Source: Naegleria gruberi (Eukaryota). From it: a stretch of DNA of 8,453 nucleotides. The stretch lies in the NCBI GenBank assembly GCA_000004985.1, contig GG739069.1; one strand, written 5' to 3'. The notes below the pieces were generated by a model. That model saw nothing but the letters and a program-made list of their open reading frames with translations. It had not been told where the DNA came from and ran no database searches. Shown in pieces: positions 1 to 8,453 of the stretch. Within the stretch, counting starts at the first letter, position 1. Each line of letters begins with the position of its first letter. The translations under genes were made by a program, and so were the position numbers.

Positions 1-1
1 T

Positions 2-739
2 AGAAAACAGTTGGTACATGTTATCCAACAGATTTTCCATATTATTCAATTCTTTCATAAATCTGGCCGAAACTAGAGTCTTGTGATGGACTAAACTAGC
101 ATAAAATCTATTTCTCAAGGTTTTTTCGTTATCCAAATAAAAATTAATAAGGGTATGATAATAGCTTGCTTTGATTTGATTTCCTTCTGCGACACAAGTC
201 ATAAACATCAAGTGACAAGAGGCACCCCAATAAAACTGTGTGATATGATCCACAGAAAGTGCTGCAATTTCACATTCTGCCCTTCTCAAAATATAATCCA
301 CATAGTCCAATTCACCCAACAGTTGTGAACTCAATGTCAAAATACCCAAATAGAAAGCATAAATACATCTCAATTCCCCCTTTGATTTTATCCATCCATC
401 ATTATGAAGCAATTCAACATCTTCCCCTCTCTCAAAACAATGCAAGTAATTATTCACAAAATGTACAAGTTTAGCCCTCTCAATCAGAGGATGAATACCA
501 CAAATGAAAGTAAAGTACAACTCAATCACCCTCATAGGTGTAATTGGAGAGGGTTTAGTTGTAAATATTCCAGCACTACCATTTGCATTATTGGTCATTG
601 TAATATCGGTACTACTCTGATCATCGGAAGTCTTTTTCTTAATAGTATCATCGGATGATGATGACGATGACTTGGATTTATCCTTTGATTTTAATGAATA
701 TAATTCAGAACCCTTTCCTCTCTTTTGTGGTGTATTGTA
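2..739 (-). CDS. Fungal-specific transcription factor (middle-homology region, Fungal_trans-like), partial. The C-terminal part continues past the left edge of the window and the true 5' end is unresolved.
   Basis: Reverse-complement translation is open for 246 codons from 739 down to 2 with no stop. The ORF track omits it because it runs off the window. The peptide reads ...YNTPQKRGKGSELYSLKSKDKSKSSSSSSDDTIKKKTSDDQSSTDITMTNNANGSAGIFTTKPSPITPMRVIELYFTFICGIHPLIERAKLVHFVNNYLHCFERGEDVELLHNDGWIKSKGELRCIYAFYLGILTLSSQLLGELDYVDYILRRAECEIAALSVDHITQFYWGASCHLMFMTCVAEGNQIKASYYHTLINFYLDNEKTLRNRFYASLVHHKTLVSARFMKELNNMENLLDNMYQLFS. The motif LYF..I.GIHPLI....L matches the start of the fungal transcription-factor middle-homology region (recognised from memory, not searched). 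Candidate starts are ATG at 757-755, which is followed five codons later by an in-frame TAG at 742-740, or the first downstream ATG at 598-596. The plus-strand ORFs 259..474 and 404..658 in the track overlap this gene and are treated as spurious. Confidence 0.65.
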
Positions 740-924
740 CTATAAGAAGTTTTCCATTCACATATTCATATGAATAGTGTAATTATTATTGTAATTAAAT
801 ATATCGAAATATGAAGTGATAATATTTTGATGATGGGGGTATAAGGAATATTTTCAATTAATTGAAACGTACAACACATTCCGATCCGACTGCTAAACAC
901 TTTGAGCATCCACTTAATTTCTTA

Positions 925-1134
925 TCACACTATTTTGATGAAGTTTTTAAATGAAAGTTTTAAAAGATGAAAACAAACCTTTTTATGCAATTTTCTACAT
1001 CGAATACATGCAATGGGATGGCAATCTCCACTAAACGTCAATTGATTCATTTGCTGATGTTCCTGTTGTTTGTCATTACTTTCACTATTATCGGGAGGAG
1101 ATGATGATGATGAAGGATCCACTTGATGAAACAT
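925..1134 (-). CDS. Small Cys-rich ORF with an incomplete Zn(II)2Cys6-like motif (..ACIRCRKLHKKVC..). It may be the N-terminal exon or a fragment of the downstream transcription-factor gene; the gene model is unresolved.
   Basis: This is the 69-aa ORF from the track. It reads MFHQVDPSSSSSPPDNSESNDKQQEHQQMNQLTFSGDCHPIACIRCRKLHKKVCFHLLKLSFKNFIKIV. The stretch A-C-x2-C-R-x5-K-C resembles the first half of a Gal4-type zinc cluster, but the C2-C3 spacing is 7 rather than 6 and the second CxxCx6C half is missing. It lies 180 bp upstream, on the same strand, of a gene encoding a fungal-specific transcription-factor domain. A Ser run and Gln-rich patch are typical of yeast transcription-factor N-termini. 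Confidence 0.3.
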   Translation of the reverse strand: MFHQVDPSSSSSPPDNSESNDKQQEHQQMNQLTFSGDCHPIACIRCRKLHKKVCFHLLKLSFKNFIKIV

Positions 1135-1465
1135 TTTTTTCGTAGTTTAAAGTAACTAGTCGATCGGTTCTGCATGCCAAAACCAGAGAATGCATTGGCC
1201 AAGTTTGAATGTGGTTGGAAATGTTGGTAAAGTGCTTCGGCGGGGTGGAGTTTTTAATATGTACGCCTTTAACAATGTTGTAAAAATATTTAAATATTTA
1301 AAAAAAAAATATCCACAGTAATTCTACTAACCAATGTTATTACAGCAAAATCATCCTCCTTAGAATTTGTATCTTTAAAACGGAACAAACCTAACTAGAG
1401 AGAACAAAGAGGATCACTACAAGTTAAACAATAACAATTATCGTACTTAAACCAGAAAGAAAAAA
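1135..1465. promoter_or_regulatory. Divergent intergenic/promoter region between the minus-strand ORF starting at 1134 and the plus-strand gene starting at 1466.
   Basis: It is 331 bp with no ORF in either orientation. It carries a TATA-like tract TATTTAAATATTTA (1287-1300) followed by an A10 run (1300-1309). It also has an isolated GC-rich CGG-containing patch CTTCGGCGGGGTGGAG (1235-1250), CCAAT motifs (rc at about 1192-1200 and at 1331-1335), and the A-rich pre-ATG context AGAAAGAAAAAAATG. Confidence 0.35.
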
Positions 1466-1777
1466 ATGATTGGTGCTGGTGGTATGCCAGGTGCCGGTGC
1501 CGATGCTGCTGGTTCTTCCGATGATGCTCCTCCATCTGGTGCTCAACCAAAACTCTCTCGACTCTTACAAATTGAACAAGATTTTGCTGCAAAAGATGAC
1601 CTTGGTATTATTTCCGAAATACATGATAGTAACCAAAAGATTCTGTTGATATCATGCCACACCTTGAATGCGGATCATTCTCTCAACACGGATCATGTAA
1701 TAGTCAAGATTGATACCATCATTAGATCATACAAGATCCGAAATCCCAATACCACAATCAAGGCACCTCTCATGATT
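1466..1777 (+). CDS. 5' portion of a protein-coding gene with a Gly/Ala-rich N-terminus, truncated by the assembly gap. Hypothetical protein.
   Basis: ATG at 1466 sits in the A-rich context aaaaaaATGa and is preceded by an in-frame TAA at 1448-1450. There are 104 open codons up to the first N. The peptide reads MIGAGGMPGAGADAAGSSDDAPPSGAQPKLSRLLQIEQDFAAKDDLGIISEIHDSNQKILLISCHTLNADHSLNTDHVIVKIDTIIRSYKIRNPNTTIKAPLMI. Codon usage is more GC-balanced than the flanks. The family is not recognised. Confidence 0.55.
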
Positions 1778-4700
1778 NNNNNNNNNNNNNNNNNNNNNNN
1801 NNNNNNNNNNNNNNNNNNNNNNNNNNNNNNNNNNNNNNNNNNNNNNNNNNNNNNNNNNNNNNNNNNNNNNNNNNNNNNNNNNNNNNNNNNNNNNNNNNNN
1901 NNNNNNNNNNNNNNNNNNNNNNNNNNNNNNNNNNNNNNNNNNNNNNNNNNNNNNNNNNNNNNNNNNNNNNNNNNNNNNNNNNNNNNNNNNNNNNNNNNNN
2001 NNNNNNNNNNNNNNNNNNNNNNNNNNNNNNNNNNNNNNNNNNNNNNNNNNNNNNNNNNNNNNNNNNNNNNNNNNNNNNNNNNNNNNNNNNNNNNNNNNNN
2101 NNNNNNNNNNNNNNNNNNNNNNNNNNNNNNNNNNNNNNNNNNNNNNNNNNNNNNNNNNNNNNNNNNNNNNNNNNNNNNNNNNNNNNNNNNNNNNNNNNNN
2201 NNNNNNNNNNNNNNNNNNNNNNNNNNNNNNNNNNNNNNNNNNNNNNNNNNNNNNNNNNNNNNNNNNNNNNNNNNNNNNNNNNNNNNNNNNNNNNNNNNNN
2301 NNNNNNNNNNNNNNNNNNNNNNNNNNNNNNNNNNNNNNNNNNNNNNNNNNNNNNNNNNNNNNNNNNNNNNNNNNNNNNNNNNNNNNNNNNNNNNNNNNNN
2401 NNNNNNNNNNNNNNNNNNNNNNNNNNNNNNNNNNNNNNNNNNNNNNNNNNNNNNNNNNNNNNNNNNNNNNNNNNNNNNNNNNNNNNNNNNNNNNNNNNNN
2501 NNNNNNNNNNNNNNNNNNNNNNNNNNNNNNNNNNNNNNNNNNNNNNNNNNNNNNNNNNNNNNNNNNNNNNNNNNNNNNNNNNNNNNNNNNNNNNNNNNNN
2601 NNNNNNNNNNNNNNNNNNNNNNNNNNNNNNNNNNNNNNNNNNNNNNNNNNNNNNNNNNNNNNNNNNNNNNNNNNNNNNNNNNNNNNNNNNNNNNNNNNNN
2701 NNNNNNNNNNNNNNNNNNNNNNNNNNNNNNNNNNNNNNNNNNNNNNNNNNNNNNNNNNNNNNNNNNNNNNNNNNNNNNNNNNNNNNNNNNNNNNNNNNNN
2801 NNNNNNNNNNNNNNNNNNNNNNNNNNNNNNNNNNNNNNNNNNNNNNNNNNNNNNNNNNNNNNNNNNNNNNNNNNNNNNNNNNNNNNNNNNNNNNNNNNNN
2901 NNNNNNNNNNNNNNNNNNNNNNNNNNNNNNNNNNNNNNNNNNNNNNNNNNNNNNNNNNNNNNNNNNNNNNNNNNNNNNNNNNNNNNNNNNNNNNNNNNNN
3001 NNNNNNNNNNNNNNNNNNNNNNNNNNNNNNNNNNNNNNNNNNNNNNNNNNNNNNNNNNNNNNNNNNNNNNNNNNNNNNNNNNNNNNNNNNNNNNNNNNNN
3101 NNNNNNNNNNNNNNNNNNNNNNNNNNNNNNNNNNNNNNNNNNNNNNNNNNNNNNNNNNNNNNNNNNNNNNNNNNNNNNNNNNNNNNNNNNNNNNNNNNNN
3201 NNNNNNNNNNNNNNNNNNNNNNNNNNNNNNNNNNNNNNNNNNNNNNNNNNNNNNNNNNNNNNNNNNNNNNNNNNNNNNNNNNNNNNNNNNNNNNNNNNNN
3301 NNNNNNNNNNNNNNNNNNNNNNNNNNNNNNNNNNNNNNNNNNNNNNNNNNNNNNNNNNNNNNNNNNNNNNNNNNNNNNNNNNNNNNNNNNNNNNNNNNNN
3401 NNNNNNNNNNNNNNNNNNNNNNNNNNNNNNNNNNNNNNNNNNNNNNNNNNNNNNNNNNNNNNNNNNNNNNNNNNNNNNNNNNNNNNNNNNNNNNNNNNNN
3501 NNNNNNNNNNNNNNNNNNNNNNNNNNNNNNNNNNNNNNNNNNNNNNNNNNNNNNNNNNNNNNNNNNNNNNNNNNNNNNNNNNNNNNNNNNNNNNNNNNNN
3601 NNNNNNNNNNNNNNNNNNNNNNNNNNNNNNNNNNNNNNNNNNNNNNNNNNNNNNNNNNNNNNNNNNNNNNNNNNNNNNNNNNNNNNNNNNNNNNNNNNNN
3701 NNNNNNNNNNNNNNNNNNNNNNNNNNNNNNNNNNNNNNNNNNNNNNNNNNNNNNNNNNNNNNNNNNNNNNNNNNNNNNNNNNNNNNNNNNNNNNNNNNNN
3801 NNNNNNNNNNNNNNNNNNNNNNNNNNNNNNNNNNNNNNNNNNNNNNNNNNNNNNNNNNNNNNNNNNNNNNNNNNNNNNNNNNNNNNNNNNNNNNNNNNNN
3901 NNNNNNNNNNNNNNNNNNNNNNNNNNNNNNNNNNNNNNNNNNNNNNNNNNNNNNNNNNNNNNNNNNNNNNNNNNNNNNNNNNNNNNNNNNNNNNNNNNNN
4001 NNNNNNNNNNNNNNNNNNNNNNNNNNNNNNNNNNNNNNNNNNNNNNNNNNNNNNNNNNNNNNNNNNNNNNNNNNNNNNNNNNNNNNNNNNNNNNNNNNNN
4101 NNNNNNNNNNNNNNNNNNNNNNNNNNNNNNNNNNNNNNNNNNNNNNNNNNNNNNNNNNNNNNNNNNNNNNNNNNNNNNNNNNNNNNNNNNNNNNNNNNNN
4201 NNNNNNNNNNNNNNNNNNNNNNNNNNNNNNNNNNNNNNNNNNNNNNNNNNNNNNNNNNNNNNNNNNNNNNNNNNNNNNNNNNNNNNNNNNNNNNNNNNNN
4301 NNNNNNNNNNNNNNNNNNNNNNNNNNNNNNNNNNNNNNNNNNNNNNNNNNNNNNNNNNNNNNNNNNNNNNNNNNNNNNNNNNNNNNNNNNNNNNNNNNNN
4401 NNNNNNNNNNNNNNNNNNNNNNNNNNNNNNNNNNNNNNNNNNNNNNNNNNNNNNNNNNNNNNNNNNNNNNNNNNNNNNNNNNNNNNNNNNNNNNNNNNNN
4501 NNNNNNNNNNNNNNNNNNNNNNNNNNNNNNNNNNNNNNNNNNNNNNNNNNNNNNNNNNNNNNNNNNNNNNNNNNNNNNNNNNNNNNNNNNNNNNNNNNNN
4601 NNNNNNNNNNNNNNNNNNNNNNNNNNNNNNNNNNNNNNNNNNNNNNNNNNNNNNNNNNNNNNNNNNNNNNNNNNNNNNNNNNNNNNNNNNNNNNNNNNNN

Positions 4701-5892
4701 NNNNNNNNNNNNNNNNNNNNNNNNNNNNNNNNNNNNNNNNNNNNNNNNNNNNNNNNNNNNNNNNNNNNNNNNNNNNNNNNNNNNNNNNNNNNNNNNNNNN
4801 NNNNNNNNNNNNNNNNNNNNNNNNNNNNNNNNNNNNNNNNNNNNNNNNNNNNNNNNNNNNNNNNNNNNNNNNNNNNNNNNNNNNNNNNNNNNNNNNNNNN
4901 NNNNNNNNNNNNNNNNNNNNNNNNNNNNNNNNNNNNNNNNNNNNNNNNNNNNNNNNNNNNNNNNNNNNNNNNNNNNNNNNNNNNNNNNNNNNNNNNNNNN
5001 NNNNNNNNNNNNNNNNNNNNNNNNNNNNNNNNNNNNNNNNNNNNNNNNNNNNNNNNNNNNNNNNNNNNNNNNNNNNNNNNNNNNNNNNNNNNNNNNNNNN
5101 NNNNNNNNNNNNNNNNNNNNNNNNNNNNNNNNNNNNNNNNNNNNNNNNNNNNNNNNNNNNNNNNNNNNNNNNNNNNNNNNNNNNNNNNNNNNNNNNNNNN
5201 NNNNNNNNNNNNNNNNNNNNNNNNNNNNNNNNNNNNNNNNNNNNNNNNNNNNNNNNNNNNNNNNNNNNNNNNNNNNNNNNNNNNNNNNNNNNNNNNNNNN
5301 NNNNNNNNNNNNNNNNNNNNNNNNNNNNNNNNNNNNNNNNNNNNNNNNNNNNNNNNNNNNNNNNNNNNNNNNNNNNNNNNNNNNNNNNNNNNNNNNNNNN
5401 NNNNNNNNNNNNNNNNNNNNNNNNNNNNNNNNNNNNNNNNNNNNNNNNNNNNNNNNNNNNNNNNNNNNNNNNNNNNNNNNNNNNNNNNNNNNNNNNNNNN
5501 NNNNNNNNNNNNNNNNNNNNNNNNNNNNNNNNNNNNNNNNNNNNNNNNNNNNNNNNNNNNNNNNNNNNNNNNNNNNNNNNNNNNNNNNNNNNNNNNNNNN
5601 NNNNNNNNNNNNNNNNNNNNNNNNNNNNNNNNNNNNNNNNNNNNNNNNNNNNNNNNNNNNNNNNNNNNNNNNNNNNNNNNNNNNNNNNNNNNNNNNNNNN
5701 NNNNNNNNNNNNNNNNNNNNNNNNNNNNNNNNNNNNNNNNNNNNNNNNNNNNNNNNNNNNNNNNNNNNNNNNNNNNNNNNNNNNNNNNNNNNNNNNNNNN
5801 NNNNNNNNNNNNNNNNNNNNNNNNNNNNNNNNNNNNNNNNNNNNNNNNNNNNNNNNNNNNNNNNNNNNNNNNNNNNNNNNNNNNNNNNNNNN
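1778..5892. other. Assembly gap or masked region: 4115 consecutive N.
   Basis: Uninterrupted n from 1778 to 5892. Both long ORFs in the track that span it (1466..6058 plus strand, 1770..5936 minus strand) are artefacts of translating N as X. Confidence 0.99.
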
Positions 5893-6616
5893 GCTAATAG
5901 GTGATATGAGAACACAATCAAAAATCCGTCAAGCACTTCACCACGTCGAACAGGGAGCTGCTGAATCTTATACTCCTCTCCTCAAATATCGTCAAGAAGA
6001 TTTACGTGTTTATCAAGTTGCTAAGAAATTGCATACCATGTGGCAAGAAAGCGACTAGGAAAAGCCAATTACATATGATGATATCGAATTTGCCTTCAAC
6101 TTGTACAAAGTACATTGCGAAAATATGAAAATGATGAAGAGTGAATACTCTCTTGAATATACCAAGTTGATGAAGGTTCTCATTAATATTGTTTTGGTAA
6201 ACAGAGAATATTGCAAGGTTGCCAAACAAGTTCTCAATGAATCAACAAAGAAATACAAGAAGGATATTTCATCAATTGAATCGGCAATTGAATCTAAATT
6301 GAAGGAATATGAATCAACTCAAAGTAATCAAGACAAACTTTTAATGCTCAGACTCTCCTCATACACCATTCAATCTATTTCTAAATTAGACTCTGATTTG
6401 GATGCTTATGAAAATATGGTTGTCCAATGTGTGAAATTGATGTATCCAGAAAGATGTATTATCTATGATTTGGACCTTTGTAAAAAACTTCTTTACATTT
6501 GCCGTACTACAACAGCTTCTTCCCTTTTGGAAAAGAGCAAGGAAATTATGGATGTTTCCTCAGTTCACTATGATAGAGAAAAACTCTTCCAACAAGCTAT
6601 TATTAGGGACAATTAA
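5893..6616 (+). CDS. 3' portion of a protein-coding gene leaving the gap (hypothetical protein), ending at TAA 6614-6616, with one in-frame TAG at 6056-6058. Under a strict standard code this splits into a gene end at 6058 plus a separate ORF 6125-6616 (or the track's TTG start at 6101).
   Basis: A single reading frame is open from the gap edge to 6616 apart from the TAG. Upstream of the TAG it reads LIGDMRTQSKIRQALHHVEQGAAESYTPLLKYRQEDLRVYQVAKKLHTMWQESD. Downstream it reads EKPITYDDIEFAFNLYKVHCENMKMMKSEYSLEYTKLMKVLINIVLVNREYCKVAKQ...AIIRDN. It is the same frame as the 1466 gene, which is how the track fused them. Only 66 nt separate TAG 6056 from the first downstream ATG at 6125, far too short for a yeast intergenic region with a promoter. 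The minus-strand ORFs 6002..6229 and 6055..6258 are antisense to this and treated as spurious. Confidence 0.5.
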
Positions 6617-6630
6617 GGTCATCAAATGTA

Positions 6631-6673
6631 GCCCGTCTAGCTCAGTCGGTAGAGCGTCAGACTGTTAATCTGC
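6631..6673 (+). tRNA. tRNA-derived element. The 5' half is intact (acceptor 5' strand, D-arm, complete anticodon arm with anticodon GTT = Asn). The 3' half is absent or degenerate, so this is a probable tRNA pseudogene or tRNA-half element.
   Basis: GCCCGTC-TA-GCTC-AGTCGGTA-GAGC-G-TCAGA-CTGTTAA-TCTGC fits positions 1-43 of a canonical tRNA. The A-box TAGCTCAGTCGG is good, the anticodon loop is a 7-nt CTGTTAA with U33 and A37, and the anticodon stem pairs 4 of 5. The body is identical in layout to the Lys(TTT)/Asn-type tRNAs known from other eukaryotes. Downstream there is no T-arm (no GTTCRANYC B-box). The best match to the acceptor 3' strand is GACGGGA at 6776-6782, which is 6 of 7 complementary, but it lies about 100 nt away and no T-stem can be folded in front of it. 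A TTTT run at 6680-6683 lies 7 nt after the anticodon arm. The track ORF 6465..6668 overlapping it is spurious. Confidence 0.5.
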
Positions 6674-6958
6674 AACAAATTTTGAAATGAAAAAAAGACT
6701 ACAGCACCACAGGTTCCCAAGTTGTCTCCAACCTCAGTACTGATGTGGCTCGACGATGCTTAACTTCTCAAATCGGACGGGATGAGGTGCATTCATCGTG
6801 ATATGGCCGTAGCCATTCATTACCTCAAAATGTGAAATATCAGCCCAATTCCAAGTTCTAACAAGGGAAACCTTAGATGCTCACATGACCAACACTTGAG
6901 TTTCTAAGGCTATGAAATCCAATTCAGCAAATTATTAATTTACAAAAATCAAAAAAAA

Positions 6959-8453
6959 ATGTATAATCACTGTCATCAGCACAATGATACGTTTGATCGT
7001 GGTGATGATTGGAGCGAGAATTGTCCCGATTTTGCTCTCCTCTCTCCAACAAACAGTTCATTCAAAAATCTCTCCTCCGATATTATTTGTTATATTGTTT
7101 TTCAATATTTGGATTACAAAACAATTACAAGTTGTTTATTATTGAATAAGGAATATTATGGAAAGATTGCAAATAATAGATTTCTTTTTATTAATATGTA
7201 TAACGAGTTATTTATTAATAAGAGAATTGCATTATCATCAGTGCAACTACCAGTACTATTTAATTGTGTATCTTTCAGTTCAGCAAATAATGAGTTATCC
7301 AGTAATTGTGAGAGAATGCTTTTGCAATCTGGGAGAATGACAGATGAAAAATTGGAATGTATTAGAAAAAAGTGGCAAGAATCAATTTAGAAAATGACTC
7401 AACGCAGCACTAGTATTAAGAATGAAAAACAACTACTGTTGAATATTATCAAAAAGATTATCAAAGACAGATTGGATATTTTAAAATTCTTTAAAAATGA
7501 ATTGAAAAGTGCACAAATAGGAGATGGAAAAATGAGACCAGCAGTTGAACTGGTCAAGGAAACACAGGACATTATTGAAAAATTGAAAACTTTTGAAGAA
7601 TTATCGTTGAGCTATCCAAGTTCTAATTACTTTCATGAATCGTTTAATAATTATATAATAGAACAACAGGAAGCTTACGAACCAATTGAGTTGAATAATA
7701 TTATTTCCATACGAGGTTAGTTTCTTCTTCTTCTTTCAAGTTTGAAAAAATTTTATGTAGAAAATACCAAGTCAACCAATGATTATGTACGAAATTCCTG
7801 TTATACTTCTATTTCAATACTAAAATATTTCAAAAATCTTAAATTTCTCTATCTAGCTGGATATTGTGATTTTCAAGAGCCAGTTAAATTGAACAACTTG
7901 AAAGTATTAATTATAAGAACAGGAGTAATGGAAAATTCCATGTTACAATCAATTCTTAACTGCTCATTCCCACAATTGAAACATTTAGAATTATGGTTAG
8001 GGTCACCCTGTCAAATAAGAAGTAAAATGATCGACCTGTCACATTACAATAATGATATTACAGAAAAAAATTTAACAGAACTGCTTTCAGAATCAGATAA
8101 TGGAAAGTATCCAACATTAGAATATTTTGGTCTGAGAAATACTTATAATATTCCACAACTCTTACCACTTATTATGAAATCAAATATTGCAAAAAGAGTT
8201 AGAGTATTGGATTTATCATTATCAGGTTCAATAACAGAAAATGATGCTCTATTTATTGCAGAGCAAATCCAATTACAGAGAAAAGAATTCACATTGTTAG
8301 AATTTGTTGATTTGAGATATAATAATATTCAACTTGAAAATAATCCGAATAGGGATATCGTGATTCAACAAATTGAAGAGGAATTCAACAAAATAGGAAT
8401 TGCAGTTGATGTATCAAAATCTGATTATTGTAGAATGCAGAACATGAAATTGT
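6959..8453 (+). CDS. F-box / leucine-rich-repeat protein (SCF substrate-adaptor-like), 3'-partial. It runs off the right edge of the window and the reading frame contains two in-frame TAG codons (7388-7390, 7718-7720).
   Basis: ATG 6959 (context aaaaaaaaATGt) is the first ATG after an in-frame TAA at 6905-6907. One frame is then open for 498 codons to the window end, interrupted only by two TAGs. The N-terminal segment holds an F-box-like motif, FKNLSSDIICYIVFQYLDYKTITSCLLLNKEYYGKI. LRR-like peptide continues across the second TAG (...LKYFKNLKFLYLAGYCDF..LNNLKVLIIRTG..LKHLELWLGS..LEYFGLRNT..VRVLDLSLSGSITENDALFIAEQI..LEFVDLRYNNIQL). The track reports only the two complete pieces (6959..7390, 7394..7720). 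It omits the open frame from 7721 to beyond 8453 because it has no downstream stop inside the window. Track ORF 7158..7340 is an internal alternative frame. Confidence 0.6.

Follow-up and report, generated by a model that had tools for sequence, protein, structure and literature searches.

An in-frame TAG in a Naegleria gruberi zinc-cluster transcription-factor gene is best read as an ordinary splice acceptor

The Scaffold and Its Features

The DNA analysed here (the window) represents one complete scaffold, a small one of 8,453 nt, from Naegleria gruberi NEG-M; the host is a heterolobosean amoeba and not a fungus. The assembly of this strain is composed of 1,977 scaffolds, with a size of 40.9 Mb and 35% GC (PMC9928731). 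The minus strand of the left end carries a putative transcription-factor gene that starts at ATG 1134-1132 and runs off the window at position 1. An intergenic region of 331 nt (1135..1465), presumably the shared promoter region of the divergent pair, separates this gene from a plus-strand ORF that starts at ATG 1466. The plus-strand ORF (1466-1777) begins MIGAGGMPGAGADAAGSSDD, is cut by a run of N and gave no match in a Pfam search.

The run of N comprises 4,115 positions (1778-5892) and is most likely a scaffold gap. An ORF of 1,530 aa (1466..6058) and another one of 1,388 aa are artefacts of crossing it. The gene models found on either side of the run have intact copies on separate large scaffolds (304 kb and 530 kb), and therefore the join across the gap may link unrelated or rearranged contigs.

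To the right of the gap there are a pseudogene fragment (5919-6601, plus strand) and an F-box/LRR-like gene (6959..>8453, plus strand). A full-length 5S rRNA gene (6696-6814, minus strand; Rfam RF00001, 105 bits, E=6e-23) is located between them. The 5′ half of a tRNA, consisting of the acceptor, the D arm and the anticodon arm (anticodon GTT, Asn), is present at 6631-6674 on the plus strand, with a score of 25 bits for the Rfam tRNA model, which is below threshold. This half-tRNA begins 30 nt past the end of the pseudogene fragment, stops 22 nt before the 5S gene and has no matching T arm; ARAGORN predicted no tRNA in the window. The region around it looks like a patchwork of gene fragments.

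Exon Structure of the Zinc-Cluster Gene

On the minus strand, the flagged sequence reads TGA (760-758), ATG (757-755), GAA AAC TTC TTA, TAG (742-740) and TAC AAT ACA, after which no stop interrupts the 246 codons down to position 1. The original prediction had given these same coordinates and this same number of open codons, all of which are correct on re-reading. An in-frame ATG (598-596) lies 47 codons past the TAG. At the composition of the window, the chance of a stop-free run is about 0.03 for 47 codons and about 1e-8 for 246 codons, and thus the frame downstream of TAG 742-740 is coding. Further upstream, a zinc cluster begins in the minus-strand ORF 1134..925, which encodes its first cysteines and contains the sequence G|GTTTGT at 978.

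The exons and introns of this gene can be delimited as follows. Exon 1 (979..1134, minus strand, 52 codons) encodes MFHQVDP...GDCHPIACIRCRKLHKK, carries Cys1-Cys2 of the zinc cluster together with the family signature HPIAC, and ends ...HPIACIRCRKLHKK. Its ATG (1134-1132) is the first one past an in-frame stop, and the exon is identical to the N-termini of two N. gruberi database proteins, EFC35684.1 and NAEGRDRAFT_73231, which are described below. Intron 1 (930..978, minus strand, 49 nt; GTTTGT...AAATAG, phase 0, 80% A+T) joins, when removed, ...HKK to CDKK..., in agreement with both proteins and with 18 paralogs. Exon 2 (873..929, minus strand) has only 57 nt, that is 19 codons, and encodes CDKKLSGCSKCLAVGSECV, with Cys3-Cys6 of the Zn2Cys6 cluster; it is present in the annotated EFC35684.1 and aligns without gaps with the paralogs.

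Intron 2 (740..872, minus strand, 133 nt; GTACGT...TTATAG, phase 0, 77% A+T) introduces in-frame stops if it is kept in. Its removal joins ...SECV to YNTPQKRGKG, as in both database proteins and without a gap against the 18 homologs. The TGA (760-758), the ATG (757-755) and the four codons that follow are all inside this intron, and the flagged TAG (740..742, minus strand) constitutes its last three bases, the 3′ splice-site trinucleotide. Exon 3 (1..739, minus strand) opens with YNTPQKRGKGSE, followed by a linker rich in Ser and Lys and then by the beginning of a C-terminal domain that is all-helical; the exon runs off the window.

It is therefore proposed that the 5′ portion of a gene for a Zn(II)2Cys6 transcription factor lies on the minus strand, with both introns cutting the DNA-binding domain. 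Translation would start at ATG 1134, the acceptor of intron 2 would be of the YAG type (TAG 742-740), and ATG 757 with its four codons would be intron sequence that is spliced out before translation. In the product, the Ser/Lys-rich linker would connect an N-terminal six-cysteine zinc cluster to a regulatory domain that is helical and Cep3-like. On these sequence comparisons, the locus is almost certainly a three-exon Zn(II)2Cys6 transcription-factor gene (1134..979, 929..873, 739..<1) with two phase-0 GT-AG introns, the second of which has TAG 742-740 as its acceptor.

The cluster of the spliced product, C-IR-C-RKLHKK-C-DKKLSG-C-SK-C-LAVGSE-C, is an exact CX2CX6CX6CX2CX6C and falls within the spacing tested for Zn(II)2Cys6 membership (CX2CX6CX5-12CX2CX6-8C). 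The Pfam model PF00172 (Zn_clus) matches the spliced product with 36.7 bits (E=4.6e-9; gathering threshold, 21 bits) over profile positions 2-38 of 39. The match covers residues 42-78 and spans all three exons; the product obtained without exon 2, by a direct 978^739 join, gave no Zn_clus match. The profile of the family matches solved Zn2Cys6 domains, including those of LAC9, PUT3, HAP1, GAL4 and Cep3, and an all-helical fold of the Cep3 type is found C-terminal to the zinc cluster. The encoded protein presumably binds DNA. The C-terminal part had been described as a fungal-specific transcription-factor domain. Pfam PF04082 (Fungal_trans) gave no match to the window product at E<=1, nor any at E<=0.1 to P0001, P0003 and eight longer members of the family (11 proteins tested with the window product).

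Gene Models, Copies and Paralogs

A protein search with the spliced product retrieved a 100%-identical N. gruberi protein. A cluster look-up then gave EFC35684.1 (XP_002668428.1; P0071), a "predicted protein, partial" of 311 aa annotated on the same scaffold, which is an exact prefix (311/311) of the product described here. From this identity, the annotated CDS was placed at complement(join(1134..979, 929..873, 739..20)). The model agrees with the structure given here in its start codon and in both introns and shows no structural difference; it stops at position 20, while the frame here is open to the end of the scaffold. The exon structure is thus already public in GenBank.

NAEGRDRAFT_73231 (XP_002671753.1; P0073), a protein of 585 aa encoded on the 304-kb scaffold, represents a near-identical full-length copy with the same zinc cluster, N-terminus and junctions, and provides the C-terminal 270 residues that are missing from the scaffold copy. 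Four small changes distinguish the two copies within the first 100 residues, namely S>G, S>P and a length difference of one Ser at two places; the copies may be alleles or recent duplicates. At the end of the scaffold (1-20, minus strand) the product reads ...QLFS, versus ...QLFFYSV in both NAEGRDRAFT_73231 and P0001; a single-base difference in a run of T, or poor sequence quality where the scaffold ends, could account for this. As this gene is a near-duplicate of the one on the 304-kb scaffold and has a pseudogene fragment next door, this copy may not be expressed.

The closest paralog is N. gruberi XP_002674804.1 (716 aa; genomic locus L001), which is 36% identical overall to the product described here. 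Its introns divide the sequence as ...HKK|CDKKLPECSKCSARGLKCT|YNTPRKRGKGSD and thus lie at the two codon boundaries where the introns of the window gene are found. The acceptor of its first intron (TTTTATAG|TGTGAT) lies at the codon boundary of intron 1, and its second intron (GTAAGT...CAAATAG|TACAATACACCA) has the position and phase of intron 2. The first 12 exon bases after the second intron are identical in both genes, and this intron ends ATAG|TAC AAT ACA CCA, as here. In contrast, it measures 46 nt and has the donor GTAAGT, while the intron of the window gene measures 133 nt and has the donor GTACGT.

A profile built from exon 3 and P0001 detected 61 homologs; the ten that were looked up all come from Naegleria, Willaertia or environmental contigs. 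The C-terminal domain is common to about 60 clusters at 50% identity. In 18 Naegleria/Willaertia homologs the motif [FL]HPIAC..CR.LHK.CD..LP.C..C...G..C.Y..P.K is found ahead of the same C-terminal domain. The window product aligns with these 18 homologs without a gap at either junction.

In many database models of the family (P0001, P0010, P0025, P0042, P0045, P0046, P0058 and P0060), the first residue lies within the zinc cluster or shortly past it, or is an internal Met. Starts within or shortly past the cluster are the signature of missed 5′ exons, an error class that has been documented for fungal Zn2C6 factors (PMC10141177). The pattern suggests that gene prediction in this Naegleria/Willaertia family systematically loses short 5′ exons.

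The evidence gathered here concerns the exon structure, the domain content, the presence of introns at both positions in a paralog and the identity with a public gene model, and the splice junctions rest on a computational gene model and homology. On this basis, the gene is probably transcribed and spliced in vivo as three exons.

Splice Signals in Naegleria

Four Naegleria introns were inspected: the two of the zinc-cluster gene (49 nt, GTTTGT..ATAG; 133 nt, GTACGT..ATAG), one of the F-box gene (45 nt, GTTAGT..GTAG) and the second intron of the paralog (46 nt, GTAAGT..ATAG). All four are A+T-rich and all four end TAG, so a TAG before an open frame is expected at a 3′ splice site. The intron of the F-box gene (7716-7760, plus strand, 45 nt; GTTAGT...ATGTAG) is in frame and contains an in-frame TAG at 7718-7720; its removal fits the alignment with Naegleria lovaniensis.

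The donors GTTTGT and GTACGT differ from the commonest eukaryotic form, and neither intron of the zinc-cluster gene has a recognisable branch-site motif. The non-consensus donor at 978 and the lack of a TACTAAC site had been raised as objections to an intron ending at TAG 742-740. However, a TACTAAC requirement is a budding-yeast criterion, and a YTRAY motif near the 3′ end is absent from all four Naegleria introns inspected.

The Other In-Frame TAGs of the Window

The window segment 5919-6601 (plus strand) is a 683-bp internal fragment of the gene for N. gruberi XP_002679028.1 (P0076, 369 aa). The DNA of the intact locus (L005) is equal to it at 680 of the 683 bases (99.6%), the differences being TCG>TAG, ATT>ATC and AGA>AGC, and the homology breaks off abruptly at both ends. 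At the true locus of XP_002679028.1 the next gene is Rad21/Rec8 and not an F-box gene. Taken together, the high identity, the abrupt ends and the different neighbour indicate a truncated pseudogene fragment at 5919..6601, in which one of the substitutions is a nonsense change. The TAG (6056-6058) lies in sequence that can be aligned codon by codon to orthologs from Naegleria fowleri, N. lovaniensis and Willaertia and from an environmental relative, which have Ser at this position (Ala in Willaertia); Ser is also present in the intact N. gruberi copy (369 aa), located elsewhere in the genome. A 51-nt in-frame intron (6008..6058, GTTTAT...TAG) was rejected because the whole stretch can be aligned codon by codon to the orthologs and to the intact N. 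gruberi copy. The annotated model EFC35681.1 (163 aa) starts at a Met past TAG 6056, and the same model is also found on a 14-kb scaffold.

The F-box/LRR-like gene contains a true in-frame TAG at 7388-7390. The N. lovaniensis F-box/LRR protein XP_044553485.1 aligns on both sides of this TAG with 34% identity and places it opposite Ser (...IRKKWQESI* vs ...IRKAWENSVS). Short introns ending at 7390 can be discarded, since the only GTs available give introns of 19 or 32 nt that break the frame, and the N. lovaniensis alignment reaches the TAG. Neither an N. gruberi protein model nor a second copy of the F-box gene was found, and two metagenome scans, one for the F-box protein and one for a DNA pattern surrounding TAG 7388, were negative. 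No encoding contigs are on record for P0001, P0063, P0069 and both ORFs flanking this TAG. An assembly error, a nonsense allele or a decaying copy could each explain TAG 7388-7390; read-through at this position is a formal possibility that nothing here supports.

The same 10-mer precedes both non-intronic TAGs at the same offset (6040-6058 and 7372-7390, plus strand), giving GTGGCAAGAA-N6-TAG and the peptide W-Q-E-S-x-stop. This arrangement was considered as a recoding signal and, for TAG 6056, rejected: at 6040 the motif corresponds to the conserved WQESDS codons of the source gene.

Alternative Readings of TAG 742-740

Both ends of a longer intron are available in the zinc-cluster gene. A single intron of 239 nt, from donor 978 to acceptor TAG 740, would join HKK to YNTP, which is equivalent to skipping exon 2, either constitutively or in a minor isoform devoid of a functional DNA-binding domain. 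The two sites are real and of phase 0, the join is in frame, and the omission of a 57-nt exon preserves the frame. However, such a product loses Cys3-Cys6 and its Zn_clus match, while the exon-2 sequence is kept in the annotated protein, in the full-length copy and in 18/18 paralogs, and the genomic locus of the paralog conserves exon 2 with its own flanking splice sites. This structure is very unlikely. The original prediction had offered it as one reading and was right that acceptor 740 and donor 978 are genuine, but they belong to different introns: the donor at 978 pairs with an acceptor at 930, and TAG 742-740 pairs with the GTACGT donor at 872. The direct 978-to-739 join misses the 57-nt exon 929..873 and, with it, destroys the Zn_clus match. 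The preferred start in that prediction was ATG 598-596, with ATG 757, its four codons and the TAG forming a 5-codon uORF in the 5′ leader and the upstream Zn-cluster-like ORF being separate or dead. In favour of this start, the ATG is in frame, the short ORF is present in the DNA and some database models of the family also start past the zinc cluster (P0001, for instance, at an internal Met). However, the 47 codons that precede ATG 598 (739-599) open with YNTPQKRGKGSE, which forms the conserved C-terminal border of the Zn2Cys6 domain and closes the Zn_clus domain in paralogs as well. In the annotated protein and in 18 paralogs, this stretch follows directly on exons 1-2, both the public model on the scaffold and the full-length copy include exons 1-2, and the N-terminally short family models show the missed-exon pattern documented for fungal Zn2C6 factors (PMC10141177). 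A start at ATG 598 is accordingly extremely unlikely.

A decoded or read-through TAG, with ATG 757 starting M-E-N-F-L-X-Y-N-T... and a TAG-specific recoding operating in three neighbouring genes, is scarcely conceivable. Two other in-frame TAGs do lie within sequence that aligns to orthologous proteins, opposite Ser in both cases, and both are preceded by GTGGCAAGAA-N6. However, a TGA stands directly before ATG 757, and the five codons are inside a 77% A+T intron that has stops in this frame. At 6056-6058, one C>A change has turned TCG into TAG; it lies in a 683-bp fragment whose homology ends are sharp, and TCG is kept in the intact N. gruberi gene. There is no tRNA predicted in the window, and all the introns seen here end TAG, so that a TAG ahead of an open frame is expected. 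Stop reassignment implies UAG at sense positions of intact orthologs in functional genes, which is found neither at 742-740 nor at 6056-6058. Literature searches combining Naegleria with in-frame stops, UAG or the zinc cluster found nothing specific. The suggestion that this was a third TAG-specific interruption therefore fails at 742-740, which is intronic, and the three TAGs have different causes. The reading maintained here is that TAG 742-740 is, as predicted from the sequence, an ordinary splice acceptor and not a stop codon, a uORF or a recoding signal.

Implications and Comparison with Fungal Factors

The finding has little biological weight, because the TAG would be an ordinary splice acceptor and the exon structure is already in GenBank. 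Its interest is mainly in the reading of similar sequences. Where a genome is rich in A+T and its introns end TAG, a 3′ splice site is expected to look like a stop with a long open frame behind it, and a zinc cluster split by short introns can conceal an exon of 57 nt. The apparent TAG-only pattern of the neighbouring genes had three different causes, which indicates that inferring recoding from a few kilobases is risky. Many database models of the Naegleria zinc-cluster family are N-terminally truncated.

The pairing of a Zn2Cys6 cluster with a middle-homology domain has been called fungal-specific in the literature (PMC10141177). A tentative and rather doubtful extension of the present results is that the gene might belong to a large heterolobosean (Naegleria, Willaertia) expansion of Zn2Cys6 plus Cep3-like proteins, the CeGAL architecture being, if these are true homologs, older than fungi or transferred between fungi and Heterolobosea, or that the skipping of exon 2 might yield a regulated isoform without DNA binding. 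CeGAL factors such as Gal4, Cep3, Put3 and Hap1, which combine a Zn2C6 cluster with a middle-homology domain (MHD), are fungal, whereas the host of the gene described here is a heterolobosean. Moreover, Pfam Fungal_trans does not recognise (E<0.1) the C-terminal domain in any of the 11 members of this family that were tested. If the two groups are true homologs and not the result of convergence, the CeGAL architecture predates fungi or moved between fungi and Heterolobosea, and the conserved phase-0 introns within the cluster could then serve as a marker to choose between these two origins.
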